From sequence record NZ_CP013725.1: 64,000 nucleotides of DNA. One strand, written 5' to 3'. The stretch is from a plasmid. A program made the translations under genes and the position numbers. Positions 14,904 through 53,295 of this stretch are shown piece after piece; the stretch's first letter is position 1, and each line of letters starts with the position of its first letter. The notes under the pieces were generated by a model. That model was not told where the DNA came from and made no database searches. It saw only the letters and a list, made by a program, of their open reading frames with translations.

Positions 14904-16406
14904 ATGAACGAAGAAACTAGAAAAAAGAAAAAAAGACCTTCACTTACCACACTTTACGAAGGAACGATGAAGGAAATTACGAGCAATGAGAACCGTTACA
15001 TCGAATTTTTGAATTTCGCCAGCAGGGTGCATAAATATAGCTTTGATGAACAGCTGCTTTTATATGCACAAAAACAAGATGTCCACATGGTAGCGACATT
15101 TGATATTTGGAAAAAGCTTGGTCGGTTTGTGAAACGCGGATCTACTGCAGCGCTTCTATTTGATTACACGACACAACAAAGAAAGTATGTCTTTGATATA
15201 TCCGAAACAGGCGGAGAACCCCTTCAGGTATTTGATTGGCAGTTACTTGATAATGACAAAAATGATTTACTTCGATATTGGAACACATATGAAAAACAGA
15301 GTGGTACGCTTGTCAATTGGGAAGATGGCATTCACGCAAAAATAGCTTCCTATCAAAAACCAATAGGTGATCAGATTCATCCGTTTTTTGTAAAAGATAT
15401 TGAAGTGGTTGCAGCGTATATCATCTATCAACGAACAAATACACTAATACCAGAGGATTTACTACTAGATGTACAGAGTGTTTTACAGATTGGGAAAAGA
15501 GATAATACGTTACTGGAGATACAACATTTTGCCAATTTAACCGCAAAGGAATTTTTACAAGATGTGGAACGCATTTTAAATAATGAACTGAAAAAAGAGA
15601 GGGTGCTTTACCATGACAGAATCAAATTTGAAGATGAGTTATCGCGAAGAGAATGGCAACCTGCTTCCAGAGATAGAAACGTCAGAAGAAATGATGCCGA
15701 TTGGAAAGATCGGGAAGCTGATCCAATTGAAATGGGAGAAAGAAAAATCGCTTCAAGTGATGAAATGGAAGTTAAACGGAAATTATCTTCAGGAAGTGAA
15801 ACGAATGGAAATTCAAGTGCAAGACAAGATCAACCAGTATTACGAGAAACTCGTGACGAAAGAAAGCTTACCGACCGAGATGGAACCATTAGCGAGAGCG
15901 AAGCGTCTGAAATCGCTTCGGATGCAAGCAGAGGAGATCATTCTGAATCAACTATAGTAGAAGAAGTAAAAGAATCTGAGCGATCAGGTTCTTTTTTTAT
16001 GCCTGTCAGTGAGCGAGGAGAACAAGTCGATTTATTTGCAGAAGAAACAAACTACATGGAAGATCCAGAAATTTCTTATTTAGAAGATAATGAGGAAGAA
16101 TCGGTAGAGAACTTTCGCTTTGCGGATACATTCACCTTTCCAAGTGGTCCAAAAGCTAAATTTCAAGCGAATATTGCAGCCATTCGCTTGCTGCATCGAT
16201 TAGAAACGGAGAATCGGTTCGCTAATAGCGAAGAACGCAATATATTAGCGCAATACTCAGGGTGGGGTGGTCTTGCGGATGCTTTTGATGAAAACAAGCT
16301 AGCGTTTCAAAAAGAATATCTCGAACTGAAGGAGTTACTAACACCTGAAGAATATCAAGCAGCATTTGAAGGAACTTTAACGACCTACTGTAAAGGGCCA
16401 TATTAA
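14904..16406 (+). pseudogene. 5' portion of a large conjugation-associated multidomain protein (ArdC-like N-terminal domain); interrupted at about 16.41 kb by IS21-type sequence
   Basis: HKYSFDEQLLLYAQKQDVHMVATFDIWKKLGRFVKRGSTAALLF resembles the ArdC N-terminal ssDNA-binding domain. The ORF ends a few bp before the TGTAGG repeats typical of IS21 ends. The matching helicase C-terminal part lies at 49498-53295. Confidence 0.5.
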
Positions 16407-16409
16407 AAT

Positions 16410-16917
16410 GTAGGAAAAGGGCCATCGAAAATGTAGGTACATGACAAATCTGATATTCTTTTTCGTGAAACTATCCAAGGAGAGTGAATCATGAGAAAAG
16501 ATGTCTTAGAAGGAGTGTTACTACACATTATGAATGAAATTCATCCTAATTTCGCAGCCCTTGCCAAACAATATAATTGTGATTATCGAACGGTTAAACG
16601 CTATTATGAAGCTGGATTGACGGGGGATTTAGATAAGCTTAGAGAGAGAAAACCTTCGGTCCCTCCTTTGCTTCATGGTTTTGAAGAAATTATTCGTGAT
16701 AAATTAGAATTAAATTGTTCGGCAGCTTCTATCTTTTATTTCTTAGGTAAAAAAGGTTATAAAGGGAGTTATACAACGATTAAACGTTATTGTCGTAAAT
16801 ACCGGGAAGAAAAAGTACAAAAAGCAACGATTCGCATTGAGACCACACCCGGTCTTTCTGCTCAAGTAGATTGGAAAGAAAACGTTAAAATGGTTAGCCG
16901 AGACGGTGAAGTGTTTT
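16410..16917 (+). mobile_element. IS21-family element remnant (left end plus 5' part of istA), truncated by IS6 insertion
   Basis: Repeated AAAATGTAGG motifs at 16405-16440. An N-terminal HTH protein ends ...TTPGLSAQVDWKE (IstA-like). The ORF runs into the IS6 terminal repeat at 16918. Confidence 0.5.
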
Positions 16918-17729
16918 GGTTCTGTTGCAAAGTTCCAAAATGAACAATACTAGTCTAACACTAGCTATAGTTTATGCAGGTATTCCTAATAATATCTTCA
17001 TTTCCGTGCAGACTGAAAACCCGAAGAGAGTGCCTTCTTTTCGGTTCTTCTTATATAATCCTCGAATGGCTTCCATGCCTTTAATCGTGGTTGAGGCTGT
17101 TCGTAAGCTTCGATAAAATTTGTTTCGTCTCTTGATGGGACGATGATCTTGTTCAATGAGGTTATTTAGATATTTCACCGTGCGATGTTCTGTTCGCTGG
17201 TAAAACCCGTGTGCCTGTAATTTTTTGAAGGCACTGGCAATAGAGGGAGCTTTATCGGTCACCAGAACCCTTGGTTCATCGAACTGTTTAACTAATCTCT
17301 TGAGAAAGGCGTAAGCTGCTTGTGTATCTCGCTTTTTCCGTAACCATATATCCAGAGTGAGACCATCTGCATCAATGGCGCGATAAAGATAATGCCATTT
17401 TCCTTTGATTTTAATATAGGTCTCGTCCATTTTCCACGAATAAATGGACTGTTTGTTTTTCCTCTTCCAAATGTTGTAAAGTAGTTTCCCATATTCCTGT
17501 ACCCAACGATAGACAGTGGTGTGAGACACGTTAATACCACGGTTGTACAGAATTTCTTGGACGTCACGATAACTCAGGTTGTACCGAAGATAGTAGCCTA
17601 CAGCGACAATAATCACATCTTTCTGAAATTGTTTGCCTTTAAAATGGTTCATCTTCGTTACTCCTCCTAGTTCCTATTAAACTCAGTTTACCCTATAATG
17701 GATCTGAGGGGAAACTTTGCAACAGAACC
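16918..17729 (-). mobile_element. complete IS6-family insertion sequence (812 bp) with terminal inverted repeats GGTTCTGTTGCAAAGTT
   Basis: IRs at 16918-16936 and 17712-17729; 226-aa DDE transposase at 16972-17652 (minus). Confidence 0.85.
16972..17652 (-). CDS. IS6-family transposase
   Basis: 226 aa, MNHFKGKQFQKDVIIVAVGYYLRYNLSYRDVQEILY..., about 80 percent identical to the IS1216 transposase at 24856-25536. Confidence 0.9.
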   Translation of the reverse strand: MNHFKGKQFQKDVIIVAVGYYLRYNLSYRDVQEILYNRGINVSHTTVYRWVQEYGKLLYNIWKRKNKQSIYSWKMDETYIKIKGKWHYLYRAIDADGLTLDIWLRKKRDTQAAYAFLKRLVKQFDEPRVLVTDKAPSIASAFKKLQAHGFYQRTEHRTVKYLNNLIEQDHRPIKRRNKFYRSLRTASTTIKGMEAIRGLYKKNRKEGTLFGFSVCTEMKILLGIPA

Positions 17730-18158
17730 GTTTTAAGAAAGCATAGGCTGCTTGCGTATCCCGTTTCTTTCGTAACCAGATATCTAAGGTTAAGCCGTCC
17801 GCATCAATTGCACGATAAAGATAATGCCAACGTCCCTTAATTTTGATATAGGTTTCGTCCATTTTCCATGAATAGAAGGATTGTCTATTTTTCTTTTTCC
17901 AAATTTGATAGAGTAGTTTGCCATATTCTTGCACCCAACGATAAATCGTCGTATGAGAAACGTTAATGCCACGATCATATAAGATTTCTTGAACTTCACG
18001 ATAGCTAAGGTTATAACGAAGATAGTAGCCCACGGCTACAATAATCACATCCTGCTGAAATTGCTTTCCTTTAAAATGATTCATCGTCATTCCTCCTGCT
18101 ATCTTTTTCTATTATTCTATCTTATTTGACAGTAGATTTAAAAATTTGCAACAGAACC
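17730..18158 (-). mobile_element. Truncated IS1216 copy (3' 430 bp missing), nucleotide-identical to the complete IS1216 at 24802-25609 over the shared segment and in the same orientation
   Basis: Terminal IR AAATTTGCAACAGAACC at 18142-18158; internal sequence from 17730 matches 25185 onward; partial tnp ORF 17683-18090. Confidence 0.8.
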
Positions 18159-18275
18159 AAATCTTTTATAAAACTGTGTTGCACTTAATTTGATAATTTA
18201 AGACAAAGAAGTGTATACTTAGTTGGGTAAATAAATTCTATTTACGATAAACATTGACCTTTGGAGGTAATACGA

Positions 18276-19640
18276 ATGAAATACGTTATAGTAGGAACTT
18301 CGCATGCTGGTTTTGAAGCTGTGCAAACTCTATTGAAAAAAGACTCAGATGCAGAAATCGTTGTATTTGAAGCTGGATCAACCGCTTCTTTCTTATCATG
18401 TGGTATTCAGTCCTATCTAGAAGACATTTCAAAATCTTTGGATGAATTACACTACGCAAATGAAGCATCATATAAAGAACAAGGCGTTGATATCCGCATG
18501 AACACAAGTGTGATTGCCATCAACCCAGAGACAAAAGAAATTACAACACGCACTACTGACGGTGTGGAAGCTACAGAAAGTTACGACAAACTATTGCTTT
18601 CTCCAGGTGGTGTACCAGGTACAATCCCGAATGTAGATGACCAACACGAAAACATCTTCTACTTACGTGGTAGAAACTGGGCAGATAAAGTGAAAAATCG
18701 TATGTCTTCAGCTAAAAAAGCTGTAGTTGTTGGTGCTGGTTACATCGGTATCGAAGCAGCAATTGCTTACGCACAAGCTGGCATCGACGTAACAGTAGTC
18801 GACTTTGTTGATTCAATCTTACCAACTTACCTTGACAGTGAATTCACTAGTCTTCTAACAAAACATATGGAAGAAAAAGGTATGAAGATTAAAACTGGCG
18901 AAGGTGTGAAAGAATTTAAAGTCAACGAAAACAACGAAGTAACTGCTGTTGTCACTGACAAAGGCACTTACGAAGCAGATACAGTTATTATCAGTGTTGG
19001 GGTTCGTCCAAACACACAATGGTTGAAAGACACTTTAACCCTTGATGGTCGCGGCTTTGTTGAAGTCAACGAACACATGGAAACTTCAGTTAAAGATGTT
19101 TACGCTGCAGGTGATGCAACTGCTATTCCTTTTGCACCTACAAACGACAAAGCTTACATTGCTTTAGCAACTAACGCTCGTCGCCAAGGTGTCATCATGG
19201 CTCGTCACGCAAGTGGTGATGCAGACGCTAAAATTGGTCGCGTAAACGGTACATCAGGTCTTGCTGTATTTGACTACAAATTCGCTACTACTGGTATCAA
19301 GGATGCTAACGCAAACTCTTACCAAGGAAATGTGAAATCTGTTTACAAAGAAGACTTAATCCGTCCTTCATTTATGCATGACGAAGAAAAAGTTTTAATG
19401 AAGCTTCATTACGATGCAGATAACGGTCGTATATTAGGTGCTCAATTAATGTCAACTTATGACATTCTTCAAGCTATTAATGCTGTATCTGTTGCGATTG
19501 AAGCTGAATGGACTGTAGACCAATTAGCGCAAGCTGATTTCTTCTTCCAACCAGAATTCAGCCGTCCTTGGAACTTCTTAAATGTCTTAGCGCAAGAAGC
19601 TCAAGGTCAACCATACGGCGCAGACACAATGCTTTTCTAA
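18276..19640 (+). CDS. FAD-dependent pyridine nucleotide-disulfide oxidoreductase (NADH oxidase / CoA-disulfide reductase family)
   Basis: N-terminal GTSHAGFEA dinucleotide-binding fold, redox-active Cys in SFLSCGIQ, second Rossmann VVVGAGYIGIE; RBS GGAGG. Confidence 0.8.
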   Translation: MKYVIVGTSHAGFEAVQTLLKKDSDAEIVVFEAGSTASFLSCGIQSYLEDISKSLDELHYANEASYKEQGVDIRMNTSVIAINPETKEITTRTTDGVEATESYDKLLLSPGGVPGTIPNVDDQHENIFYLRGRNWADKVKNRMSSAKKAVVVGAGYIGIEAAIAYAQAGIDVTVVDFVDSILPTYLDSEFTSLLTKHMEEKGMKIKTGEGVKEFKVNENNEVTAVVTDKGTYEADTVIISVGVRPNTQWLKDTLTLDGRGFVEVNEHMETSVKDVYAAGDATAIPFAPTNDKAYIALATNARRQGVIMARHASGDADAKIGRVNGTSGLAVFDYKFATTGIKDANANSYQGNVKSVYKEDLIRPSFMHDEEKVLMKLHYDADNGRILGAQLMSTYDILQAINAVSVAIEAEWTVDQLAQADFFFQPEFSRPWNFLNVLAQEAQGQPYGADTMLF

Positions 19641-19694
19641 TCCAAACGAAAGCCACTTTTTCACTACAGATATATAACATTCTTTATAACAAAT

Positions 19695-22537: not shown

Positions 22538-22543
22538 TGAAAC

Positions 22544-24801: not shown

Positions 24802-25609
24802 GGTTCTGTTGCGAAGTTTGAAAATCAAACGCGCCCTCTCTGAACTCCAAATATCTTAGGCTGTTATTCCCATTAATACCTTGATTTCAGTAGACACCGA
24901 AAAGCCGAAGAGCGTTCCATTTCTTCGGTTCTTTTTATATATTCCTCGAATGGTCTCCATGCCCTTAATCGTGGAAGAGGCTGTACGGAGACTTTGATAA
25001 AATTTATTTCGTCGTTTAATAGGTCGATGGTCTTGTTCTATTAAATTGTTAAGATACTTCACAGTTCGGTGCTCTGTCTTAGTATATAAACCCACACTCT
25101 GTAACTTTCTAAAGGCGGAGCCAAGAGAAGGTGCTTTATCGGTCACAATTGCTTTCGGCTCACCAAACTGTTTATGGAGTCGTTTTAAGAAAGCATAGGC
25201 TGCTTGCGTATCCCGTTTCTTTCGTAACCAGATATCTAAGGTTAAGCCGTCCGCATCAATTGCACGATAAAGATAATGCCAACGTCCCTTAATTTTGATA
25301 TAGGTTTCGTCCATTTTCCATGAATAGAAGGATTGTCTATTTTTCTTCTTCCAAAGATAATAGAGGACTTTGCTGTACTCTTGCACCCAACGATAAATCG
25401 TAGTATGACAAACATTTATTCCACGATCATATAACAATTCCTGAACTTCACGATAGCTTAGATTGTAACGCAGGTAGTAACCAACAGCGACAATAATGAC
25501 GTCTTTTTTGAATTGTTTGCCTTTAAAATGATTCATTACTCTGTCCTCTCTGTCTTTTTTCTCAATTTTACACTAAAATAGATTTTTTGGAAAACTTTGC
25601 AACAGAACC
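24802..25609 (-). mobile_element. IS1216 (IS6 family), complete 808-bp copy
   Basis: IRs GGTTCTGTTGCGAAGTTT at 24802-24819 and AAACTTTGCAACAGAACC at 25592-25609; transposase 24856-25536 (minus); no 8-bp target duplication. Confidence 0.9.
24856..25536 (-). CDS. IS1216 transposase (IS6 family DDE)
   Basis: 226 aa MNHFKGKQFKKDVIIVAVGYYLRYNLSYREVQELLYDRGINVCHTTIYRW... Confidence 0.9.
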   Translation of the reverse strand: MNHFKGKQFKKDVIIVAVGYYLRYNLSYREVQELLYDRGINVCHTTIYRWVQEYSKVLYYLWKKKNRQSFYSWKMDETYIKIKGRWHYLYRAIDADGLTLDIWLRKKRDTQAAYAFLKRLHKQFGEPKAIVTDKAPSLGSAFRKLQSVGLYTKTEHRTVKYLNNLIEQDHRPIKRRNKFYQSLRTASSTIKGMETIRGIYKKNRRNGTLFGFSVSTEIKVLMGITA

Positions 25610-37594: not shown

Positions 37595-38798
37595 TTATAT
37601 TTCCTCCGTTTTCCCTTATTTCTGAGAAAACTTTGTTTATTTGTTCAGAAATTTTTTGTTTTTCCTGTTCTTCGCTTGGGATAGCCGGCATTAACTTCTC
37701 AACAAAATTATTAAAATAATGAATTTTATTTTTTGAATTAATGATAGTAATTCTACTATCATCCATATTTTTAATTTTCCCTATATTGGTCTCTATTTTC
37801 TCATCAGCATTATTTTCGTATTCAGTATCGCCTAAGATGATTAGCCTAAAAGAAGGAATTGATAAATTATTTAGTATTATTCGATTGATGTGATCGTCGC
37901 CAAAGCTGTAACCTAGTGTAATTAATACACTATTCTTTTGGGTTAAATTATCTTGAAACGATCGCATTAAATCTGTATAGGGTACCATTAAGGTACTTCT
38001 ATCTTTTAAAGGTGTTGGATATATCATCACATTCTCAAGAGAACTTTTATCTATTTCTTTCATGGATATTTCATATATCTTATCTTCGCTTTTTTTCCAT
38101 GAAATAGATCCGTGAATTTTATACAAATTATAAAAATGATCAACTCTGTTCCATACATCCTTATTTAAATTCATATTGTCCACATACATATATCTATACA
38201 TATTTGGGTTGAATGTTCTCATATATGAACCAGTAAATCCGCTATTATAAATAAAATTCAATTCATCCAATGCACGCTCATTATACATATCATAATTTGT
38301 AGTTACTATATTAATTGGACTTTTTCTACTTGAAGAAATTGTTTTTAAATAAAGCTTTTTGTATATTTCAGATAGCTCCTTGCAATCCATGCCTTGAGTA
38401 ATTTTATCTGTAATGAATTTTTTAACAATATTAATCTTTTTATCAATTTCTTTATCAATTTCCTTAATATGATTTACTTGTCTGAGCGCATTCATGAAAT
38501 CCATCAGTTCTTCAAGATTTCGGTTAACTTTATCTTCTATACCAACACCCAATATTTCGAAATCTGGGTTTGATTTTATGAAGTCTTTAAAAAGACCAGC
38601 CATTGTAGATATAGCTGCTTCTTCATTATCGATATAAAAGCTAGAGCAACCTGCACCCATTAATATAGAAAGATTTTCCATTTGTAATGCTTGAGCAATG
38701 GTTTTTTGTACATCACTTAGAGATTTTTTTACTTTATTAGCTCCTTGGTAGTAATTAATTTCTTCATCAATTTGATTCAAACCTAATCCCTCCAACAA
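37587..38798 (-). CDS. SIR2-like NADase domain protein, first gene of a SIR2-HerA type defense operon
   Basis: LSILMGAGCS (GAGxS NAD-binding), VTTNYD (catalytic Asn, sirtuin TQNID equivalent), YKIHGSISW (catalytic His); 403 aa. Confidence 0.7.
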   Translation of the reverse strand: MLEGLGLNQIDEEINYYQGANKVKKSLSDVQKTIAQALQMENLSILMGAGCSSFYIDNEEAAISTMAGLFKDFIKSNPDFEILGVGIEDKVNRNLEELMDFMNALRQVNHIKEIDKEIDKKINIVKKFITDKITQGMDCKELSEIYKKLYLKTISSSRKSPINIVTTNYDMYNERALDELNFIYNSGFTGSYMRTFNPNMYRYMYVDNMNLNKDVWNRVDHFYNLYKIHGSISWKKSEDKIYEISMKEIDKSSLENVMIYPTPLKDRSTLMVPYTDLMRSFQDNLTQKNSVLITLGYSFGDDHINRIILNNLSIPSFRLIILGDTEYENNADEKIETNIGKIKNMDDSRITIINSKNKIHYFNNFVEKLMPAIPSEEQEKQKISEQINKVFSEIRENGGNINE

Positions 38799-39887: not shown

Positions 39888-41933
39888 TTGTCGAATAACA
39901 AAAAACACCAAAATCATGAGCATCATAGTCATCAAGAACATGAAAATCACACTAGTCATGGTAATCATGAACATCACCATCATGGAAATTTTAAAAGTAA
40001 ATTCTTTATTTCTTTGATTTTTGCGATACCGATTATTATTTTATCGCCCATGATGGGAGTTAAATTACCGTTTCAAATTTCATTTACAGGGTCAGATTGG
40101 ATTGTATTAATTCTTGCTACAATTTTATTCTTTTACGGAGGAAAGCCATTTTTATCAGGGGCTAAAGATGAAATTTCAACTAAAAAACCTGGAATGATGA
40201 CGCTTGTTGCTCTAGGTATTTCAGTAGCTTATATTTATAGTTTATACGCCTTTTATATGAATAACTTCAGTGGTTCATCCACACATACAATGGACTTTTT
40301 CTGGGAATTAGCGACTTTAATTTTAATCATGTTATTAGGTCATTGGATTGAAATGAACGCAGTAGGTAATGCAGGCAATGCACTGAAGAAAATGGCAGAA
40401 CTTTTACCTAATACTGCAGTGAAGCTGATTGATAACAATCAACGAGAAGAAGTTAAAATATCAGATATTCATATTGACGATATTGTGGAAGTCAGAGCAG
40501 GCGAAAGTATACCCACAGACGGAATCATTGTTCAAGGAGAAACATCAATTGACGAATCATTAGTTACTGGCGAATCAAAAAAAGTTCATAAAACTCATAA
40601 TGATGATGTTATTGGAGGTTCAATTAATGGTTCAGGTACAGTACAAGTTAAAGTGACTGCTACGGGTGAAAATGGCTACCTATCTCAAGTTATGGGTCTT
40701 GTTAACCAAGCTCAAAACGATAAGTCAAAAGCTGAACTCCTCTCTGATAAAGTCGCAGGTTATTTGTTTTACTTTGCAGTAAGTATTGGCCTGATTTCAT
40801 TTATTGTATGGATGCTTATTCAAAACAACGTCGATTTCGCACTTGAACGGCTAGTAACCGTATTAGTCATTGCTTGTCCACATGCATTAGGCTTGGCAAT
40901 ACCTTTAGTTACAGCACGTTCTACCTCTATAGGCGCACATAATGGTTTAATCATTAAAAACAGAGAATCTGTAGAAATCGCACAACACATTGATTACATC
41001 ATGATGGATAAAACTGGGACACTAACTGAAGGTAACTTTTCAGTGAATCACTATGAAAGTTTTACAGACGAGTTAAATAATGAAGAAATATTGAGTCTAT
41101 TTGCTTCATTAGAAAGTAATTCTAATCATCCACTTGCCACTGGTATTGTTGATTTTGCTAAAGGCAAAAATATTTCATATGCTACTCCTCAAGAAGTTAA
41201 TAATATTCCAGGTGTAGGCTTAGAAGGCACAGTTGATAATAAAAAACTCAAAATAGTGAATGTTTCTTATCTCGATAAAAGCAATTTTGATTATAATAAA
41301 GAACAATTTACGAATCTCGCTCAACAAGGGAATTCTATTAGTTATCTAATTCATGACCGACAAGTTATTGGTATTATCGCACAAGGCGATAAAATTAAAG
41401 AAAGTTCAAAACAAATGGTTTCGGATTTATTATCGAGAAACATTACGCCAGTCATGCTTACAGGCGATAATAAAGAAGTGGCACAAACAGTGGCTGAAGA
41501 ATTAGGTATTAGTGATGTCCACGCGCAATTGATGCCCGAAGATAAAGAAAGTATTATCCAAGATTATCAAAGCAATGGTAGCAAAATCATGATGGTTGGT
41601 GATGGTATCAATGATGCGCCAAGCCTTATTAGAGCAGATATTGGTATGGCAATTGGCGCAGGGACAGATGTAGCTATTGAATCGGGGGATGTCATACTCG
41701 TTAAAAGTAATCCTTCTGATATTATCAATTTTTTGTCCCTTTCAAAAAATACGATGAAAAAAATGGTTCAAAATTTATGGTGGGGCGCAGGATATAACGT
41801 GATTGCAGTTCCTCTTGCAGCTGGTATATTAGCTTCTATTGGTTTAATATTATCACCTGCTGTGGGTGCAATACTTATGTCTTTAAGTACGATCATCGTA
41901 GCAATTAATGCATTTACATTAAAATTAAAATAA
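39888..41933 (+). CDS. copB: CopB-type copper P1B-3 ATPase with a His-rich N-terminus (TTG start)
   Basis: [27 protein letters not shown] tail, TM6 CPH motif ([12 protein letters not shown]), [26 protein letters not shown]. Confidence 0.85.
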
Positions 41934-41947
41934 AAGAGGTAAATATA

Positions 41948-43108
41948 ATGTATAAAAAAATGTTCACAATTTTAATTACGTTATTTTCTATAATGTTTAT
42001 GGTTCCTAATGATACTTTTGCAGAAGGTAAGCACAACATGATGGACATGAAAGAAAATGATCAAAAGCGAAATGATATGATGGATATGAAAAGTCATGAC
42101 GAAAGAAAAAATTTGAATTCTTCACAAGGAAAAAATGAAATAACATTTCCCAAAGTTTTAGATCCTAAAAAAGATAACAATGGTTATAAAAGTTATACAT
42201 TAAAAGCGCAGAAAGGAAAGACAGAATTTTACAAAGGTAATTTCTCTAACACTTTAGGATACAATGGAAATTTACTTGGGCCAACTTTAAAATTAAAAAA
42301 AGGAGATAAGGTTAAAATTAAGTTAGTCAACAACTTAGATGAAAATACAACATTTCATTGGCATGGGTTAGAAATAGATGGAAAAGTGGATGGAGGCCCT
42401 TCTCAAGTTATAAAACCAGGAAAAGAAAAAACAATAAAATTTGAGGTTAAACAAGAGGCTGCTACATTATGGTATCATCCCCACCCCTCCCCAAATACAG
42501 CTAAACAAGTTTATAATGGTTTATCAGGGTTATTATATATAGAGGATGACAAAAAGAATAATTATCCTAGCAATTATGGGAAAAATGATTTGCCTATAAT
42601 AATCCAAGATAAAACATTTGTATCTAAAAAATTAAATTATACAAAAACGAAAGATGAAGATGGTACTCAAGGTGATACAGTCCTTGTGAATGGGAAAGTA
42701 GATCCTAAATTAACAACAAAAGAAGGAAAAATACGTTTGAGACTTTTAAATGGCTCCAATGCTCGGGATTTAAATCTTAAGCTAAGTAATAATCAAAGTT
42801 TTGAATATATTGCTTCAGAAGGCGGCCATTTAGAAAAGACTAAAAAGTTAAAAGAAATTAATTTAGCTCCTTCAGCAAGAAAAGAAATAGTAATAGATTT
42901 ATCTAAAATGAAAGAAGAAAAAGTCAATCTTGTTGATAATGATGAAACAGTAATTTTACCAATTATTAACAAAGAAAAAAGTACTAACAAAGACACTACT
43001 CCAAAAGTAGATAAAAAAATCAAATTAGAAGGTATGGACGGGGTCCCAAGCGCCTACGGGAAATTTGTATCGATAAGGATTACAAATTCCCGTAATATCA
43101 ACGTTTGA
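41948..43108 (+). pseudogene. mco: multicopper oxidase, 3'-truncated by a Tn3-family terminal repeat (last about 22 codons read into the IR)
   Basis: HWHGLE and WYHPH copper-site motifs; only 386 aa with no C-terminal HCH motif; the IR begins at 43040. Confidence 0.65.
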
Positions 43109-43115
43109 CGACTCT

Positions 43116-46031
43116 CTATTTTTCTATGTTTAATTTTCTCAACCTCTTGGGAATAGATAACAAATCAAATTTGTATTCACCAAGAAACGTAATATGCTCC
43201 CAATTAATAGGAGAAATATGGTTCATATAGTTGGTTACTTCTGGATCTATTTTCACTAGATAATCATAGGCTTCTTGTAAATAGACGGCGTTCCATATAC
43301 TAATAGCATTTATTAAAACATTTAGTGCACTTGCACTTTGAAGTTGCCGACGAATATCACGTTCCATGAATTTACCTCGGCGACCAAAAAATAGTTCTCT
43401 TGCCAAAGCATTTACGGCTTCCGTTTTATTCAAACCATGGGTAATCTTACGTCTTAAGCTATCATCTGTCACATAATCTATCATGAAAATACTCTTCTCA
43501 ATCCGTCCCAATTCTCTTAAAGCGGTAGCTACCTTATTTTTTCGTGCGTAAGAACCTAGCTTTCCTAAAATTAGCGAACTTGAGACTTTACCAGTTTGAA
43601 TGGAATAAGCGATTCGTTTAATTTCTTCGTAACTTTCATCAATGGTTTTTATATTGATCCTACCACTGATGAGCCCTAATAAATCAGGGTATTCTGAAGT
43701 TGGCTTTATAGAAAATAATTGAGACTTTTTTATATTCCTAATACGGGGTTCAAAATGAAACCCTAGTAAAGCCGTCATACCAAACACTTGATCTGTATAA
43801 CCATTTGTGTCAGTGAAGTGTTCTTCAATATCTAAATCTGTTTCGTGGTAAAGCAAGCCATCTAATGTATGAGTCGCTTCTCTCGTGTTGGTCGAAACAA
43901 CTTCAACATGATGTGAGGTATTTCTGTCATTGATTGACCGAATCATTGTGGCGCCTTTCTCTAAGCTTTTATAATGTGGATTCACGTCAGCCTTAATGGC
44001 GGATACACCTACTGGTACACGCATTCCATCGGAAGCACTCGTTTTACCTTCTCCCCAAAAATCAGCTATAGGAATTCCTAATTGAAAATTAACCAAAATA
44101 GATTGGGCACAGGTTAAGGCTTCTTTATAAAACCGCCATTGTTTAGTATTCGCCAATTGAGGATAAGTAATTCCGGGGGTGGATTGGGCCATTTTCTCAA
44201 GCCCAATATTCATTCCTAATCCTAATAAAGTGGCAAAAACAATTTTCTTTTCTCGTTCATTTGGCGGATTTCCAGTTGAATCATGGATAAATTCTTGCGA
44301 AAATTGAGTCCAGCTATCCACTTCTATTAATAGGTCACTTAATCTTATTTTGGGAATCATTGAATAAAGTTTTTTTCTATATTCCTCTGCTTCATCTGGT
44401 GTAACTTTCTCCAATTTTTTTAGCACCATTTTGGCTGAACTTTTGCCAGAATTCGAATAATATTGTAGTTGTGAGTCCAATATTGCGCCCCTAGAAGTCA
44501 AATAATCATCAAATGTATCTGGAATAGTGAGTGAGTTAACGCAAGCATCGGAACTGATTAAGTAATCATCAATGTTTCGATGGGCTAAGCTTCCTTCTAC
44601 CGAAATATTTCCTGATCTAATATTATTTTTTAACTCTGTGAACGCTACCAACTCGTAGAAGGATCGGTCTATTTTTCCTTCTTCAGGTTGAACAAGACGT
44701 TCCCATTTTTTACTCACAAATTCAATGGATGTGTTTGCTGGTATTTTCCGTTTACCATCGTTTTTTAACTCATTTATTTGAGTAAGCGCTGTAAGAATTG
44801 GTTGTGCAGATGAGGTTGCTTTAAACGAGAGTATTTTTAAAAGCATTGGGGTATATCTTCTAAGGTAAGTGGCTTTATTTCTCACCATTTCTAAATATCC
44901 GTGATTTTTCTTACCAGTAATTCGTTTAGCGTCTTCTCCATCTTGGATTAAGTCATGCCAGGGGATAACTCGTTCTATTTCGTCAAAAGGATTACTGTCG
45001 TTGTCTTTTGCAAAATGAAGTGCATCAATCAGAGACGCATAATGTTCTAATTTTTCAGTCGCCAACTTCCCTTTCTCTTTCAACAGTTCTTGCGAATCGT
45101 GCATCCCTTTTCGTTTAATCCCCGCTAAAATCCGGTCATTAATTTCAATGAGCAGATCGATCAGATACTGATGATGATCCACTAAAAAAGCAATGAGTAA
45201 GGAATACTTTTTTTCGAATTCAAAACGAGAAAAATCATAGGCATCGTAATTATCACCTAATCGTGCTAACTGAAGAAATCTATTTCGGTGAATATGCGAC
45301 ACATTGATTGTTCCTAGTTCAAGAACCGTAATCGTCTCAACTTTTTTGCAAATGGTCATAAAACTCTCTGGATTGGCTTTGCCAGGGATATCTTTTAACC
45401 AGGCGAGTTTAGTCATCTTCGTTTCTTTATATACTAGAAACAACTCATCTAATTTCTCGATTTGTGTTTCTGTTAGTGAATCCAGAAGAATTGAAAACAG
45501 TGTGCTTTCAGCCTTATCACGACAATGGCTGATAATGTCTTCTAGTGTCGCTATCGATGGAAAAATAATTCGATTTTGGGTGAGGAAGCCTAATGTTTTT
45601 TTCATGAGATAGGTAGAGTCATCATTTTCTAATGCCAGCTTAATAAGAAATGCTATTAATTGATTGCGTGTGTCGACACTTCCAAAACGCTGATACCTAA
45701 ATGTTTCTAATATCTCATTAAAGTGATTGGCACGTGTGTTCCTATGGGCGTATAAGGCCAGTTCAATTGAGTCAAGATGTAACTGGCGCCTTACATAAGA
45801 GATTAAACGGTCTGATTGGATGGACCAGTTACTCAACGAACACCCAGGGTATCGTGCCAAGCAGAGCTGAATGGCAAACCCTAACTTATTGATATCCCCT
45901 CTGTGTTGGTTGATGATATCTAAATCAGAGTCAGAGAAACTGAAATAAGCTTGAAAATCCTCTTCAGATAAGTGATCGACAGAAAGAAGTTGCTCCCGCT
46001 GTGCTGCTGTTAAAATTTTCTTTAATGCCAT
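43116..46031 (-). CDS. tnpA: Tn3-family transposase
   Basis: 971 aa, typical Tn3 TnpA length and DDE region. Confidence 0.85.
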   Translation of the reverse strand: MALKKILTAAQREQLLSVDHLSEEDFQAYFSFSDSDLDIINQHRGDINKLGFAIQLCLARYPGCSLSNWSIQSDRLISYVRRQLHLDSIELALYAHRNTRANHFNEILETFRYQRFGSVDTRNQLIAFLIKLALENDDSTYLMKKTLGFLTQNRIIFPSIATLEDIISHCRDKAESTLFSILLDSLTETQIEKLDELFLVYKETKMTKLAWLKDIPGKANPESFMTICKKVETITVLELGTINVSHIHRNRFLQLARLGDNYDAYDFSRFEFEKKYSLLIAFLVDHHQYLIDLLIEINDRILAGIKRKGMHDSQELLKEKGKLATEKLEHYASLIDALHFAKDNDSNPFDEIERVIPWHDLIQDGEDAKRITGKKNHGYLEMVRNKATYLRRYTPMLLKILSFKATSSAQPILTALTQINELKNDGKRKIPANTSIEFVSKKWERLVQPEEGKIDRSFYELVAFTELKNNIRSGNISVEGSLAHRNIDDYLISSDACVNSLTIPDTFDDYLTSRGAILDSQLQYYSNSGKSSAKMVLKKLEKVTPDEAEEYRKKLYSMIPKIRLSDLLIEVDSWTQFSQEFIHDSTGNPPNEREKKIVFATLLGLGMNIGLEKMAQSTPGITYPQLANTKQWRFYKEALTCAQSILVNFQLGIPIADFWGEGKTSASDGMRVPVGVSAIKADVNPHYKSLEKGATMIRSINDRNTSHHVEVVSTNTREATHTLDGLLYHETDLDIEEHFTDTNGYTDQVFGMTALLGFHFEPRIRNIKKSQLFSIKPTSEYPDLLGLISGRINIKTIDESYEEIKRIAYSIQTGKVSSSLILGKLGSYARKNKVATALRELGRIEKSIFMIDYVTDDSLRRKITHGLNKTEAVNALARELFFGRRGKFMERDIRRQLQSASALNVLINAISIWNAVYLQEAYDYLVKIDPEVTNYMNHISPINWEHITFLGEYKFDLLSIPKRLRKLNIEK

Positions 46032-46034
46032 AAG

Positions 46035-46589
46035 TTAGTTTTTCCTTCCATTAAGATAGCGGTATAGGGTTGTTTTGCTTAGTTTAGAGGCATCAAGAAT
46101 CTGATTAATTGAATATTCCTTACTATCGTACATTTTCAAAGCCAACTCAATTGATTGACTGGCTTTACTTGGTCGCCCCCCTTTTTTTCCACGTGCTCTT
46201 GCTGCTTCAAGACCTGATTTGGTTCTTTCAATTGTAATATCACGTTCCAACTCTGCTAAACTAGCCATGACTCGGAAAAAGAATCTTCCCATAGAAGTAG
46301 AGGTATCAACGTTATCTTGAATAGAGATAAAATTAACCCCAAGCTCTTCAAACGTTTCTGAAAGCTCAATCAAATGTTTAGTTGAACGTGAAATTCGATC
46401 AAGTTTATAAATAACCACTGAGTCACCTTCACGTAACCCCTTTATCATGTCTTCCAATTGTGGACGGTCTCGTTTTGAACCCGTCACCTTTTCTTGGAAT
46501 AGTTTATCGATACCGTGTTGGGTGAGTGCATCAATTTGCAAATTCAAATTTTGATCCTCTGTACTCACTCGAGCATAGCCAAAAATCAT
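46035..46589 (-). CDS. tnpR: Tn3-family resolvase (serine recombinase)
   Basis: MIFGYARVSTEDQNLNLQ; RBS AAGGAGG; the ORF track extends further upstream, but the RBS supports the Met at 46589. Confidence 0.85.
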   Translation of the reverse strand: MIFGYARVSTEDQNLNLQIDALTQHGIDKLFQEKVTGSKRDRPQLEDMIKGLREGDSVVIYKLDRISRSTKHLIELSETFEELGVNFISIQDNVDTSTSMGRFFFRVMASLAELERDITIERTKSGLEAARARGKKGGRPSKASQSIELALKMYDSKEYSINQILDASKLSKTTLYRYLNGRKN

Positions 46590-46868
46590 AAAAAGCCTCC
46601 TTACTATTAATGACTTAAATGTACCATAACTCATCAATAATTACCATATAGGCACTTTGAAAAAAGAACGAGTTTTGGTACCTGGTTTAGGGCTCAAACG
46701 GATGAAAAACAGATGAATTCAAAAAGTGCCATAAACGACCATTTAAGGTACTGGTTATAATAGTCAATTGTTATTCAAACGAACACTTGACTATCAGATT
46801 GGAACAGAGTATAATCACCCCTATAAACATTCAAGTGTCTCTTTGAGTGTTGGAAGGAGAAACTGAAT

Positions 46869-47228
46869 ATGACTGTAGATATTTGCGAAATTACTTGTAT
46901 TGATGAAGAAAAAGTAAAACGGGTGAAGACTGGACTGGAAACCGTAGAAGTTACAACTATCAGTCAAATATTTAAAATTCTGTCTGATGAAACAAGGGTT
47001 AAAATTGTGTATGCATTACTGACAGAAAATGAACTTTGTGTATGCGATCTAGCTAATATTGTCGAAGCAACAGTTGCCGCTACGTCCCACCATTTACGCT
47101 TTTTAAAGAAGCAAGGGATTGCGAACTATCGAAAAGATGGAAAGCTTGTTTATTATTCTCTTGCGAATGAAAGGGTTAGAGATCGGATAAAACTTATATT
47201 ACTTAATTTTGAAGGAGTGGGAGTCTAA
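46869..47228 (+). CDS. cadC: ArsR/SmtB family cadmium-responsive repressor CadC
   Basis: [31 protein letters not shown] metal-site and HTH; promoter TTGACT...TATAAT at about 46786-46830. Confidence 0.85.
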
Positions 47229-49363
47229 TGGCAGAAAAGACTGTTTATAGAGTTGATGGATTAAGCTGTACAAATTGTGCGGCCAAATTTGAACGGAATG
47301 TAAAAGAAATTGAGGGTGTAACAGAAGCTATTGTAAACTTTGGCGCATCAAAAATCACGGTAACAGGTGAAGCAAGTATTCAACAAGTTGAACAGGCTGG
47401 AGCATTTGAACACTTGAAAATCATTCCAGAGAAAGAATCTTTTACTGATCCAGAGCACTTTACTGACCATCAATCGTTTATTAGAAAAAATTGGCGATTA
47501 TTGCTTTCTGGATTATTTATTGCAGTGGGGTATGCGTCACAGATCATGAATGGGGAGGACTTTTATCTTACTAATGCACTATTTATTTTTGCAATTTTCA
47601 TAGGAGGCTATTCTCTCTTTAAGGAAGGATTCAAAAATTTATTGAAGTTTGAATTTACAATGGAGACACTGATGACAATAGCTATTATTGGAGCTGCTTT
47701 CATTGGTGAATGGGCAGAAGGATCCATTGTGGTGATTCTATTCGCAGTAAGCGAGGCGCTTGAGCGTTACTCGATGGATAAGGCACGACAATCTATTCGT
47801 TCCCTAATGGATATTGCGCCAAAAGAAGCACTTGTGAGACGCTCGGGCACCGACAGAATGGTTCATGTAGATGACATTCAAATTGGCGACATTATGATTA
47901 TAAAACCTGGTCAAAAAATTGCGATGGATGGTCACGTTGTGAAAGGTTATTCAGCCGTCAATCAAGCAGCGATTACTGGTGAATCTATTCCTGTTGAAAA
48001 AAACATCGATGATTCCGTTTTTGCTGGAACGTTAAATGAAGAAGGATTGCTTGAAGTTGCGGTCACAAAACGAGTAGAAGATACCACGATTTCAAAAATT
48101 ATTCACTTAGTTGAGGAGGCACAAGGTGAACGTGCTCCAGCTCAAGCATTTGTTGATACATTTGCTAAATATTATACGCCAGCCATTATTGTGATCGCCG
48201 CACTGATTGCAACAGTACCGCCATTGCTGTTTGGTGGAAACTGGGAAACGTGGGTGTATCAAGGGTTATCTGTATTAGTGGTTGGGTGTCCTTGCGCCTT
48301 AGTTGTTTCAACTCCTGTTGCCATCGTCACCGCCATTGGAAATGCAGCTAAAAATGGCGTATTGGTAAAAGGTGGTGTGTATTTAGAAGAAATTGGTGGG
48401 CTAAAAGCCATTGCGTTCGATAAAACTGGTACCTTGACAAAAGGTGTGCCGGTGGTCACTGATTATATTGAACTAACAGAAGCCACAAACATTCAACATA
48501 ATAAAAACTATATCATCATGGCAGCACTGGAACAATTATCTCAACACCCCCTTGCTTCAGCCATTATTAAGTATGGAGAAACGAGAGAAATGGATTTAAC
48601 TAGTATTAATGTGAACGATTTTACATCCATCACAGGAAAAGGGATTAGAGGAACTGTAGATGGTAACACCTATTATGTTGGAAGTCCCGTTCTATTTAAG
48701 GAATTACTAGCATCGCAATTTACTGACTCCATTCATCGACAAGTGAGTGACTTACAACTTAAAGGGAAGACTGCTATGCTTTTTGGAACAAATCAGAAAC
48801 TGATTTCTATAGTGGCAGTTGCTGACGAGGTTAGGTCATCCAGTCAACATGTTATTAAACGACTTCATGAGCTGGGGATTGAAAAAACTATTATGTTGAC
48901 TGGCGATAACCAAGCCACAGCGCAAGCAATTGGCCAACAGGTGGGTGTTTCTGAAATAGAAGGTGAGTTAATGCCCCAAGATAAACTAGATTACATTAAA
49001 CAGTTGAAAATAAACTTTGGTAAAGTGGCCATGGTTGGAGACGGTATTAATGATGCGCCAGCCCTAGCAGCGGCCACGGTTGGAATTGCAATGGGCGGAG
49101 CTGGAACTGACACAGCCATTGAAACAGCTGATGTTGCCTTAATGGGAGACGACTTACAAAAATTACCTTTCACGGTAAAGTTGAGTAGAAAAACACTCCA
49201 AATTATTAAGCAAAATATCACATTTTCCTTGGTCATCAAACTGATTGCTCTTTTGCTAGTCATTCCAGGGTGGTTAACATTATGGATTGCAATTATGGCG
49301 GATATGGGTGCGACTCTTTTAGTCACGTTAAATGGCTTACGATTAATGAAAGTGAAAGATTAA
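47228..49363 (+). CDS. cadA: Cd/Zn-transporting P1B-2 ATPase CadA
   Basis: N-terminal [15 protein letters not shown]6 CPC ([13 protein letters not shown]), [17 protein letters not shown]. Confidence 0.9.
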
Positions 49364-49488
49364 TTACCGCTATTGTCTAGTTGGTTTTTTGAATTATTCT
49401 GAAAGCATTCCTTATTGTACAAAATAACAGGTGAGATCAAAGGAAATCTCCTTATCGATACAAATTCCCCGTTGGCGCTCGGGACCCC

Positions 49489-52400
49489 GCAGTAAGCATG
49501 AAGACAGGAAGCAGCAACACACGAACAATACCTAAAAAAGTGGAAACTGTAGAAGCATCAGAAGAAATTATTGAGGAATTGACAGAAATGGATTGGCAAG
49601 AAGGTGATGAAATACCTGGACATGTTCGGAATGATACGTTTTTCGTGCATCAGGATAAGGTCTATTATCATCATAATGGGCGAGCAGAAACCGTTGAGGT
49701 TTCAAAAGGGATGCAAGATCGCATTAAAAAGATGTGTCAAGTGCGACAAGCCTTGATAAACATTATTGATTTGCAACTTCGTCCTTCCTACCAAGCAGCT
49801 GAACTGGAGAAACGTCTTTCTGTGCTGAATCAAGTATACGATACCTTTACCGAAAAATATGGTTTTTTTCACGATACATCGAACCAACGTGCTTTCTTTG
49901 ATGATGATCAGCTGGCACTTTTGGAATCTATTGAGATCCAAGAAAAGCCCGGCGTTTATGCGAAAGGGAGAATTTTCAGAGAAGCAACGATTCGTCCAAT
50001 CATAGAGGTGGAGCGTGTACAATCAGCAGAAGAAGCATTGCAGCTGTCCCTTAGTAAAAAATTGATAATCGATTTTGAGTATATGCAGCAAATTAGTGGA
50101 AAGACACAAGAGATATTACTTAAAGAATTAGATGGACTACTATATGAAGATCCGACTTATCATGGTGATCAGCCAAACAAAGGATGGCTATATCGAGATG
50201 ACTATTTATCTGGAGATATTGTAGAGAAACTAGCCCTCGCAAAATCTCGAGAAGAATCCAACTATCAAAAAAATATAGAGGCGCTTAAAAAAGTAATGCC
50301 GAAACCACTACAAGCGAAAGACATTCAATTTCAATTAGGGAGTACTTGGATACCGATTGACATCTATGAGAGGTTCATGTATCAAACATTTGGGACACCT
50401 AGTTATTATCAGTTTGGAACAAATCCAGATATTAAACTGGAATATGCTCGATATAACAACACTTGGCATATCAAGGGAAAAGGGCTAGATAAAGGTTCTA
50501 TCAAAGCTTCTAGTGTATATGGAACAAAAAGAATGAGTGCTTATGAAATATTGGAGTGTTCCCTCAACCTGCAGCAAGTTATTATACGCGATCCTGAAGA
50601 GTATTATGATGAGAATGGCAATAAAAAAATTAAGTATGTCATTAACCCAAAAGAAACCATGATTGCTAGAGGAAAACAGACGCAGATGAAAAATGCGTTT
50701 CAAAAATGGTTATTCCAAGATAATTTTCGGGCAGATAAGCTGGTTGAAATTTATAATGAGAGGTTCAATCGTGTGGTCCCAAGAAAATATGATGGAAGTC
50801 ATCTCACTTTTGACAGCATGAATTCCAGCTGGGAACTTAGACCTCATCAGCGGAATGTCGTGGCAAGGATTATTTACAATGGATCAGCTCTTATGGCTCA
50901 TGAAGTGGGAGCAGGAAAGACAGCATCAATGATTGCGGCAGGCATGTATATGAAACAAGCAGGTGCTGTGCAAAAACCGATGTATGTGGTTCCTAATCAT
51001 TTGACGCAGCAATTTGCGAATGAGTTTCTTGCTTTGTATCCGTCGGCTAATGTACTTCGAACCACGAAAAAAGATTTTGAGAAAAAGAATCGCCATCGCT
51101 TTATATCCAAAATTGCTACTAACAACTATGACGCCGTAATCATTGGTCATAGTCAGTTTGAAAAAATTCCTTTAAGCAAAGAAAGACAAGCTGACTTTTT
51201 ACGGAAGGAGCTTACTTCGATCAGTATCCAAATGAGAGAAGCAGAAGAAAAAGAAGGACGTTCTTTTACAGTGAAAAGAATGGCAGGTTTCCAAAAAAAA
51301 TTAAGAGAACGTCTGGAAACTTTGTCTAATAAGGAAAAGAAAGATGATATTTTAGACTTTGAACAGCTAGGAGTAGACTTTTTATTTATCGATGAAGCGC
51401 ATGTTTATAAAAATCTTTATACCGTGACAAAGATGAACAACGTGGCAGGGATCAATACATCGCAGAGTCAACGTGCAATGGATATGTTCCAAAAAGTGCA
51501 ATATATCCAGGAAATGAATGGAGGGAAAGGTGTCGTGTTTGCGACTGGTACACCAATTAGTAACAGTATGTCTGAGATGTTTACGATGCAGCGATTCTTG
51601 CAAAATGATCAGTTGGAACGAATGGGATTAGATACTTTTGATAGCTGGGCTTCCACATTTGGGGAGGTAATTTCTTCATTAGAAATGACGCCAGAAGGTT
51701 CCGGCTACCGTATGCGTAATCGTTTTGCGAAATTCCATAACCTTCCGGAACTCATGGCCACTTTCCAATCAGTCGCAGATATTCAGACGCATGATATGCT
51801 TAATTTGCCTAAACCCGATTTGAAAAATGGGAAGGCAGAGATTATCGTGAGCGAAATTTCTCCTTATCAGGAACGATTAATGCAAGAGTTCGCAGAACGA
51901 GCGGAGATGATTCGTGCGGGTGTAGTACAGCCATATGAAGATAATATGTTGAAGGTCACTCATGAGGCAAAACTAATGGCGATTGATTCCAGATTACTGG
52001 ATGAAGCTGCACCGGTGGATGAAAATGCAAAACTATTCAAGTGTGCCGAAAACGTACACCGAATTTGGGAAGAAACAACCGCACAAAAAAGCACACAAAT
52101 TATCTTTAGTGATTCAGGAACGCCGAAAAAAGACGTTTTCAATGTCTACGATGAGATTAAGCATCTTTTAATTGAGAAAGGTATTCCGGCAGACCAAGTT
52201 GCTTTTATTCATGACTGCAATAACGATCAGCAACGAGAAACCTTATTTGAAAAGGTAAGACGCGGAGAGGTTCGTGTTCTTTTGGGAAGTACAGGTAAAC
52301 TAGGTACAGGTACTAATGTTCAAAATAAATTGATTGCTGGCCATCACATCGATTGTCCGTGGAGACCAAGTGATCTTACACAAAGAGATGGTCGTGTCGT

Positions 52401-53295
52401 AAGACAAGGAAATGAGAATGATGAGGTCCAGCTGTATCGATATGTTACGAAAGGGACATTCGATAGTTACTTGTGGCAAATACAGGAACAAAAACTCAAA
52501 TATATTTCTCAAGTCATGACAGGGAAAAGTATTTCGAGATCTTGTGATGATCTGGATGAAACGGTTCTATCAGCGGCAGAAGTAAAAGCAATTGCCACAG
52601 ATAATCCTTTATTAGCAGAAAAAATGTCGGTCGATAATGATATCACTCGTCTGCAGATCATGCGAAGCAGCTGGGAAACAGAACGATTAGACATGCAAAA
52701 GAAAATTGATACGATTCTTCCTGATGCGATCAATCAAAATAAAAATCAGCAAATGAATATCCAAGAAATGATACTGCTTGTTCAAAACTATCCATTACCC
52801 AAAAAAGATGGAAAGCCGGTCTTTGAAATGGAGATCGATGGCGCCATTTATCAAGGTCGCAAGGAAGTCGCAGAAATGATGGATGAGAAGGTAAGCCAAA
52901 CGGACTTTAAAGAAGTGGACCAAGTTGAGATAGGGAGATATCGGGGACTGAAAGTTACTGTCCATAAAGATGTACAGTACGAAAAAAAGATTGTTCTTTC
53001 CTCAGATAATTACTCTGTTCACATGCGCTATACTTTAGAGGGTGGAACTGGAAACACGGTGCGGATCAGCAATCAATTGAGCGAGCTTCCCAAACAGCTG
53101 ACGAGTTTAAACGAACAGTTAGAAAATATGGAAGTCAATCTTCAAATGGCGAAGCAAGAAATCCATCTTCCTTTTGAAGAAGATGAAAAACTACAAAAGC
53201 TGCTTGCGAGACAAACAGAGATTAATACATCCTTAGAATTGGAAAATTTAAGTAAGCCTTCTATTCTTGAAAAAGAAGAGGTTATTGAACGATGA
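49489..53295 (+). pseudogene. 3' portion of the large conjugation-associated protein: SNF2/DEAD-like helicase with a long coiled C-terminal region; the 5' end is cut by the Tn5422-like IR
   Basis: helicase motif I ALMAHEVGAGKT, motif II FLFIDEAHVYKN, later QRDGRVVRQG (motif VI-like); the ORF begins exactly at the transposon boundary. Confidence 0.6.

Follow-up and report, generated by a model that had tools for sequence, protein, structure and literature searches.

The stretch analysed here, referred to as the window, comprises 64,000 nucleotides (nt) of a plasmid (sequence record NZ_CP013725.1). Its plus strand carries two open reading frames (ORFs) separated by 33.1 kb of mobile and accessory DNA. 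The 5′ ORF (14904-16406) encodes 500 amino acids (aa). The 3′ ORF encodes 1265 aa counted from an ATG (49498-53295), and its frame is open from 49489, the first base past the right inverted repeat of the Tn3-family transposon Tn5422. An earlier note, made from the sequence of the window alone, had described this start at the outer end of the repeat and had proposed that the two ORFs are halves of one gene of more than 1700 codons, an internal part of which may have been deleted. Our comparisons agree on each of these points. By their exact nucleotide correspondence to intact alleles, the two ORFs can be identified as the ends of a single 2016-codon plasmid gene.

Each fragment was searched by megablast against the 72,556 plasmids of PLSDB. 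Matches of both fragments were confined to Listeria, with 84 records for the 5′ fragment and 23 for the 3′ fragment. The uninterrupted allele that the earlier note had suggested looking for was found in 23 PLSDB plasmids, two of which carry annotation suggesting a frameshift. In pLIS14 (WP_227662537.1), pLM1686 (WP_031641940.1) and pGMI16-004 (pLM6179 type; WP_031669358.1), both fragments lie within one annotated 6051-bp 'SNF2-related protein' gene, which in contrast to the window is an uninterrupted ORF. Base-by-base comparison with pLIS14 and pGMI16-004 assigned window positions 14904-16388/9 to gene nt 1-1485/6 and 49489-53295 to gene nt 2245-6051. The 5′ fragment thus represents codons 1-495 and the 3′ fragment codons 749-2016 plus the stop codon. 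Two mismatches separate the 5′ fragment from pGMI16-004, and its identity to the gene of pLI100 is 99.9%; the 3′ fragment matches pLIS14 gene nt 2245-6051 without mismatch (100%). Within a stretch of 145 bp (window 16043-16187, gene nt 1140-1284), 13 sites distinguish the pLIS14 gene from the window. This cluster looks like a gene-conversion patch; outside it there is one difference in the 5′ half and none in the 3′ half. Joined in silico, the fragments gave an open frame of 1763 codons. Apart from seven substitutions, its product is the pLIS14 protein lacking residues 496-748. The missing codons 496-748 (759 bp) form the methylase core, encoding the Eco57I-type Pfam match and the motifs ILEPSMGIGHF and GNIPF. 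A search of the window revealed that this piece has not been relocated anywhere else in it.

NCBI names the two products separately ('ArdC-like ssDNA-binding domain-containing protein' and 'SNF2-related protein'), as would be expected of an assembly artefact or of two naturally separate genes. We regard the probability of either as negligible. The identical right junction is present in five independent assemblies on contigs of up to 86.6 kb, which rules out an assembly artefact, and Tn5422 is single-copy in the window. Separate genes are ruled out by the intact 2016-aa alleles, by a 500-aa ORF that ends in insertion sequence (IS) DNA, and by more than 4400 homologues (E ≤ 1e-10) that are long single chains rather than naturally separate full-length proteins; the 120 listed mostly measure 2000-3000 aa. 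Source names for some of them are 'N12 class adenine-specific DNA methylase' or 'SNF2-related protein', and some among the matches listed bear MutS-I (PF01624) or PF18830 domains.

The surroundings of the gene are shared as well. The 132-codon ORF directly upstream of the 5′ fragment precedes the intact gene in pGMI16-004, pLIS14 and pLM1686, and it probably shares an operon with the giant gene. Downstream, the plasmids with intact alleles have the same helix-turn-helix gene and 323-aa gene as the window. The window lacks a pemIK/MazEF-DUF2786-DUF3850 segment that lies after the gene in plasmids of the pLM6179 type. Assemblies with a frameshifted giant gene list as a separate gene, with a weak TnpV match, a 114-aa ORF (15613-15957) that lies in an alternative frame within the acidic low-complexity part of the 5′ fragment. 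This is an annotation artefact. The features of the locus are compiled in Table 1.

Table 1. Features of the split gene and of the DNA between its fragments (window positions)
Feature	Position	Strand	Remarks
132-codon ORF directly upstream of the giant gene	14502-14900	+	Without Pfam match
Giant gene, 5′ fragment, codons 1-495	14904-16388	+	ArdC-N (aa 27-94), acidic low-complexity linker, first ~95 residues of the conserved methylase module
IS21-family remnant	16389-16917	+	Left terminal repeats (TGTAAAGGGCC...) and start of istA (~143 codons); 99.6% identity with pLI100 element positions 1-529
IS1216-like (IS6 family) elements	16918-18158	-	Complete copy 16918-17729, then partial second copy ending at 18158
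Cargo region	18159-43039		Contents from the annotation of the 99.97%-identical pLIS14 stretch and Pfam on called genes
Cargo, first part			NADH oxidase/peroxidase-like oxidoreductase, OpuAC, P-type ATPase, ISS1N-like IS6 copy (24802-25609)
Cargo, middle			Cupin, FetAB, Dps, Crp/Fnr, heavy-metal ATPase
Cargo, last part			SIR2 plus DUF87/HerA, resolvase, copB, multicopper oxidase truncated by Tn5422
Tn5422 (Tn3 family, 6449 bp)	43040-49488		Left repeat 43040-43078, right repeat 49450-49488
Tn5422 tnpA	43116-46031	-	
Tn5422 resolvase	46035-46589	-	
Tn5422 cadC	46869-47228	+	
Tn5422 cadA	47228-49363	+	
Giant gene, 3′ fragment, codons 749-2016 and stop	49489-53295	+	Linker, winged-helix/DUF8437 module, SNF2 helicase, C-terminal region

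Domain architecture of the intact gene product

The ArdC-like N-terminus and the SNF2-like C-terminus recognized in the earlier note were both recovered in Pfam searches. The 5′ fragment matched ArdcN over aa 27-94 with 25.3 bits (cut-off 22.6), and the 3′ fragment matched SNF2-rel_dom (44.4 bits), Helicase_C (31.8 bits) and ResIII (30.9 bits). Its translation displays the helicase motifs I (AHEVGAGKT), II (DEAH) and VI (QRDGRVVRQG). The intact allele scored 23.3 bits for ArdcN and 29.8 bits for Eco57I. In the intact protein, ArdC-N (aa 27-93) is followed by the acidic low-complexity linker, the adenine methylase (~aa 400-750), a poorly conserved linker (aa 751-775), the winged-helix/DUF8437 module and the SNF2 helicase. 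Among 21 aligned sequences the linker of aa 751-775 is the least conserved, gap-rich part (identity 0.08, 48% gaps). No solved structure matched the intact protein by sequence, and the NCBIfam collection yielded just sub-threshold matches to helicase domains (DrmD-like and antiphage models), which were not taken as membership.

A class of ArdC-N-headed, DarB-like methylase-SWI2/SNF2 'polyvalent proteins' of conjugative elements has already been described, and these proteins were proposed to travel with the DNA and to counter restriction (Iyer et al. 2017, PMC5512222). Judged by its domains, the intact gene product belongs to this class, as its single chain of 2016 aa starts with an ArdC-N header and also contains an N6-adenine methylase of the Eco57I type and a helicase of the SWI2/SNF2 type. 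Moreover, the intact Listeria allele lies downstream of a MobP2 relaxase gene on a plasmid with type IV secretion genes. A zincin protease domain was not detected, in contrast to the polyvalent class used for comparison. By analogy with ArdC and phage P1 DarB, the protein is thought to shield incoming DNA from restriction. The window copy is split in two. ArdC-N and the SNF2 helicase are present, whereas the N6-adenine methylase domain with its S-adenosylmethionine-binding and catalytic motifs is absent. It is therefore a remnant of a member of the polyvalent class and not a functional member.

The setting in the window is likewise conjugative, with a MobP2/MobL relaxase gene at 10818-12158 and VirD4-like, TraC-like and NlpC/P60 genes upstream. 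Seven small indels relative to pLM1686 occur at 274-2052 (deletions of 1, 1, 9, 4, 1 and 1 nt and an insertion of 1 nt). They break the gene of the VirD4-like coupling protein and a DUF8208/pLS20_p028-like conjugation gene. Six other assemblies have unbroken copies of these two genes, encoding 821 and 788 aa. The number of indels is the same in the near-identical assembly GCA_043947765.1 (3 mismatches and 7 gaps over 16.4 kb), and a look-up of the truncated VirD4-like ORF gave no record. Either the source contains sequencing errors here, or conjugation has been lost in this strain specifically.

Junctions and the block between them

At the left junction, the boundary between gene and IS lies between 16388 and 16389, where the sequence continues with TGTAAAGGGCCATATTAAAATGTAGG and the IS end reads TGTAAAGGGCC. 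One T can be assigned to either side. We ascribed it to the IS and limited the gene part to nt 1-1485 because two other junctions of the same IS end start at TGT. The 500-aa ORF had been described as stopping a few base pairs before the TGTAGG repeats of an IS21 end. Such repeats do follow downstream (16410-16415 and 16433-16438) within the IS21 terminal repeat region; however, the last five codons (CKGPY) and the stop codon of the ORF are already IS sequence. In the ORF starting at 16491, the first 40 residues are identical to IstA of an IS21-family element in pLI100, whose istA is annotated by RefSeq as IS21 family transposase. Only 529 bp of the element are left in the window, and istB, the rest of istA and the IS21 right end were not found there. 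istA is truncated by the complete IS1216-like copy. Terminal repeats of the IS1216-like elements (GGTTCTGTTGCAAAGTTT) gave five matches with about 0.01 expected by chance; their transposases (226 aa) match DDE_Tnp_IS240 and belong to the IS6 family in the pLIS14 annotation. None of the IS21 ends examined showed a target duplication. The left junction was found 100% identical in at least 52 of the 72,556 PLSDB records, including pLM5578 and pLIS19, and the exact 500-aa product on 983 public contigs. This junction is old and common to many Listeria plasmids.

The right junction is formed by Tn5422, which is present once in the window. Its inverted repeats match at 36 of 39 positions (0 expected by chance), and Pfam detected DDE_Tnp_Tn3, Resolvase, HTH_5 and HMA/E1-E2 ATPase. 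Its counterpart in pLIS14 and pLM1686, annotated as a Tn3-family/cadA-cadC region, shows 99.99-100% identity. As noticed earlier, the element lacks a 5-bp target duplication, being flanked by TGGAC on the left and GCAGT on the right. This argues against a simple insertion of Tn5422, not against the identity of the element. The window, pLIS14, pLM1686 and pLIS19 share one left flank, a truncated multicopper oxidase gene ending in TGGAC, whereas each of the four has a right flank of its own. No PLSDB record contained the right junction (Tn5422 right repeat joined to gene nt 2245), nor did genome_contigs, which holds one genome per species and is ill-suited here. The exact 1265-aa product was found on 911 public contigs, indicating that the split arrangement is common though the junction is lacking in PLSDB. 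The right junction is thus specific to this plasmid lineage, yet very common among sequenced isolates. A near-identical backbone is carried by GCA_043947765.1. In GCA_016597995.1, a variant of the same plasmid, a 23-kb deletion fuses a P-type ATPase gene to cadC (window 24026 and 47021). It removes the transposase and resolvase genes of Tn5422 and keeps the junction between the right repeat and the gene.

The DNA between the fragments corresponds in its contents to what had been listed from the sequence: an IS21 remnant, IS6/IS1216 copies, an oxidoreductase, OpuAC, P-type ATPases, SIR2-HerA, copB, a multicopper oxidase and cadCA. The block (window 16386-49488, 33.1 kb, its first bases overlapping the left junction) is 99.97-99.99% identical to pLIS14, and from 16908 onwards it is 99.9-100% identical to pLM1686. 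Both plasmids have an intact giant gene and carry the block at another site. In pLIS14 the block is inverted and stands in place of 16.5 kb of type IV secretion genes; in pLM1686 it is bordered by the post-gene backbone and by the replication side. Since the same block occurs elsewhere in plasmids with an intact gene, it is a pre-assembled metal and stress cargo module moving among Listeria plasmids of the repA family, and not demonstrably stacked inside the gene. Transposable elements bordering shared plasmid regions have already been noted for Listeria (PMC8508797).

Two details of the cargo were recorded in addition. The interval 35738-38798 holds overlapping genes for a SIR2-family protein and a DUF87/HerA-like ATPase, next to a resolvase gene; the SIR2 and DUF87/HerA genes are a candidate anti-phage defence pair. 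At 39912-39976, the two alignment pieces against pLIS14 and pLM1686 overlap by 65 bp on the window and by 14 bp on the subject side, which indicates that the 5′ end of copB contains a short repeat or differs in length.

The earlier note had interpreted the region as a single nested insertion hotspot. Under this explanation, the IS21 element entered the gene by simple insertion and all other elements became nested at the same spot. Indeed, no other left boundary of the module is nearly as common as the junction between IS21 and the gene, the module of pLIS19 occupies the same backbone position, and the giant gene has suffered several independent lesions in Listeria. Nevertheless, we consider stacking in place unlikely. 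The right end and istB of the IS21 element are not in the window, no duplication accompanies any IS21 end examined, 759 bp of the gene are lost, and the right boundary is a Tn5422 end without duplication, an element unrelated to that on the left. Furthermore, the block resides elsewhere in pLIS14 and pLM1686, the right junction of pLIS19 differs, and an IS21 right end joined to the gene was found in no record of PLSDB or metagenome_contigs. At best, stacking belongs to an earlier history overwritten by later rearrangements.

Origin of the break

The gap in the gene is bounded by the ends of two unrelated elements, and backbone DNA has been replaced rather than simply interrupted. The constant left flank and variable right flank of Tn5422, together with the missing duplication, point to two junctions with unrelated element ends and not to one simple insertion. 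Probably, one gene of the polyvalent class was broken by these two ends and lost its core through replicative transposition of Tn5422. Elements of the Tn3 family transpose replicatively, which gives rise to cointegrates and to adjacent deletions leaving a single copy without flanking duplication. The IS21-family left end abuts codon 495 and the Tn5422 right inverted repeat codon 749. Most likely, the module's own Tn5422 transposed replicatively into GCAGT at gene nt 2245-2249. The intervening DNA would then have been lost, either through an adjacent deletion within the molecule or through homologous recombination, for which a cointegrate or a pair of sister or related plasmids would have served as substrate. 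A simple cut-in insertion would not have been the route.

Recombination is plausible because the backbone is mosaic. Window positions 1-7000 are ~100% like pLM1686, the stretch from 7 to 12.5 kb is only ~80% like pLM1686, pLIS14 and pLIS19, and about 10.5-13 kb is 97-100% pLI100-like, the pLI100 comparison covering this stretch. The 3′ fragment and the DNA downstream of it are 99.9-100% identical to pLIS14. Further downstream, an 808-bp stretch (54815-55622) is shared with pLIS14 and absent from pLM1686, where the Tn5422 right repeat abuts the equivalent of window 55623-55624.

The mosaic backbone and the near-identity of the 3′ side to pLIS14 would also suit an exchange between transposon copies, as would the lack of a duplication, the constant left flank and the variable right flanks. 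Here, Tn5422 would have entered an intact gene on another plasmid by simple insertion, duplicating GCAGT, and resolvase or homologous recombination with the Tn5422 of the module would have followed. What sets this explanation apart from replicative transposition out of the module is solely the existence, at some time, of a free simple insertion. The parent junction that it implies, gene nt ..2249 joined to the Tn5422 left repeat (GATAAATGGGCAGT followed by GGGGTCCCAAGCGCC), gave no match in PLSDB and genome_contigs, and differences within Tn5422 are too few for mapping a crossover. We therefore regard such an exchange as possible, although not likely.

Of the 84 PLSDB Listeria plasmids with the 5′ part, most have a broken gene: it is truncated at codon 495 in at least 52 and at codon 751 in nine, and two look frameshifted by annotation. 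N-truncated products of 1729 and 1651 aa are on record in public assemblies. pLIS19 carries a truncated allele (WP_003728484.1, 'ArdC-like ssDNA-binding domain-containing protein'), and pLM5578 and similar plasmids are placed with it by annotation and by the common left junction. It shares with the window the IS21/gene junction at codon 495, the cargo module to its right and the backbone position. In contrast to the window, the Tn5422 right end of pLIS19 abuts DNA 1551 bp past the stop codon of the gene. The 3′ fragment is wholly lost, and 6117 bp of backbone are replaced as compared with 759 bp. Two inverted copies of the IS21 left end (pLIS19 55822 and 64237) bracket the backbone segment from the relaxase to the giant gene, and the flank of the second copy equals the junction bounding the module in pLIS14, suggesting inversion or exchange via IS21 repeats. 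The second type of lesion is represented by Pli0004 of pLI100 (756 aa, 'class I SAM-dependent methyltransferase'). It stems from the same gene and ends at the same IS21 left end as in the window, but the break follows nt 2253 (pLI100 2131-4401; nine records of this type). ArdC-N and the complete methylase are kept and the helicase is lost, a mirror image of the window 3′ fragment.

Several observations weigh against loss of the core through replicative transposition of Tn5422. First, reciprocal junctions were missing: the one between the gene and the Tn5422 left repeat as stated above, and the IS21 right end (ATATGGCCCTTGACA) joined to gene nt 148x (TATACAGAACCTGC), with 0 matches in PLSDB and metagenome_contigs. 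genome_contigs and metagenome_contigs suit Listeria plasmids poorly, and one reciprocal-junction pattern was scanned in each. Second, two alleles of the 5′ fragment bear the left junction, that of the window and that of the pLIS19 type. They differ at 12 sites, the last of which lies 243 bp before the junction, and extra recombination must be assumed. Third, the pLI100-type break overlaps the start of the window 3′ fragment (nt 2245) by 9 bp, GCAGTAAGC (window 49489-49497). This coincidence is not explained by the favoured model. The overlap has the polarity expected of one insertion, and its chance is ~18/6051, or ~0.003, if breakpoints are uniform within the gene.

The overlap would be accounted for if a block with an IS21 left end and a Tn5422 right end had entered the gene at once, duplicating 9 bp (GCAGTAAGC, nt 2245-2253), followed in the window by an IS21-adjacent deletion of nt 1486-2253. 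The IS21 end of pLI100 after nt 2253 and the Tn5422 end of the window before nt 2245 have the correct polarity for this, and the block occurs with exact element ends in three backbone contexts. Still, we judge this course of events highly improbable. To our knowledge, no transposase uses one IS21 end together with one Tn3-family end. Target duplications measure 5 bp in the Tn3 family and about 4-8 bp in the IS21 family, and 9 bp fits neither element. In all three contexts, the block replaces backbone (759 bp, 6.1 kb and 16.5 kb) and no flanking repeat is seen. Moreover, pLI100 has no Tn5422 right end beside the gene, and the right flank of its IS21 is unrelated. That the module is a discrete translocatable unit which entered once, with pLI100-type and window-type plasmids each keeping one junction, is a very unlikely proposition as well. 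Both breakpoints (nt 2245 and nt 2253) lie at the start of the least conserved linker, aa 751-775. Alternatively, the coincidence could plausibly be due to tolerance or selection at this domain boundary. In this milder version it is possible that breaks in the linker are tolerated or selected as they leave working stand-alone modules, with the helicase fragment placed under cadmium-inducible read-through from cadAC.

A related case is known from elements of the ICESa2603 family, whose snf2 gene is the integration site for Tn1806-like elements (PMC12942858). There, too, a large mobile element that carries resistance interrupts a giant methylase-helicase gene belonging to a conjugative element. 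Integration into snf2 is site-specific and reversible, with serine integrases and 4-bp repeats (PMC12942858). In the window, by contrast, the junctions are transposon and IS ends, gene sequence has been deleted, and no sign of site-specific integration was seen. Replicative transposition of Tn5422 with loss of the intervening DNA remains our preferred explanation for the split Listeria gene, and the 9-bp junction coincidence is the sole oddity worth follow-up.

Functional state of the fragments and implications

A promoter-like site at 14424-14452 precedes the 132-codon ORF, and from this native promoter the 500-aa ArdC-N fragment can presumably still be produced. The ATG of the 3′ fragment at 49498 corresponds to the internal Met752 of the giant gene. 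No Shine-Dalgarno-like sequence was found before it, and no promoter-like or terminator-like site on the plus strand at 49200-49700. Lacking its own promoter-like site and ribosome-binding site, the helicase fragment would depend entirely on read-through from cadA for its transcription. With the methylase gone, the presumed methylase-helicase function would be lost, and the giant gene is dead as a unit in the window plasmid.

We found no publication on this particular split, nor, in the library searched, one combining Listeria, plasmid, Tn5422 and SNF2, and the helicase/methylase gene is not mentioned in Chmielowska 2021, Kuenne 2010, Fagerlund 2016 or two plasmid transcriptome papers. The elements that broke the gene (IS21-family, IS1216-like, Tn5422) are well known, and the plasmid backbone is mosaic and heavily sampled. 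The split is real but ordinary decay in a very common type of Listeria plasmid, and it leaves the current understanding of transposons or plasmids unchanged. Its practical consequence concerns annotation: on roughly a thousand public Listeria contigs the two fragments are named as separate, apparently functional proteins, and they should be flagged as one pseudogene. Furthermore, the window-type plasmid keeps the 3′ fragment that is lost from pLIS19, which aids in reconstructing how the cargo module became attached to the backbone. Because the gene is broken in most of the PLSDB plasmids with the 5′ part, the findings suggest that the methylase-helicase anti-restriction function, as presumed from the family, is dispensable for these plasmids in food-chain Listeria.

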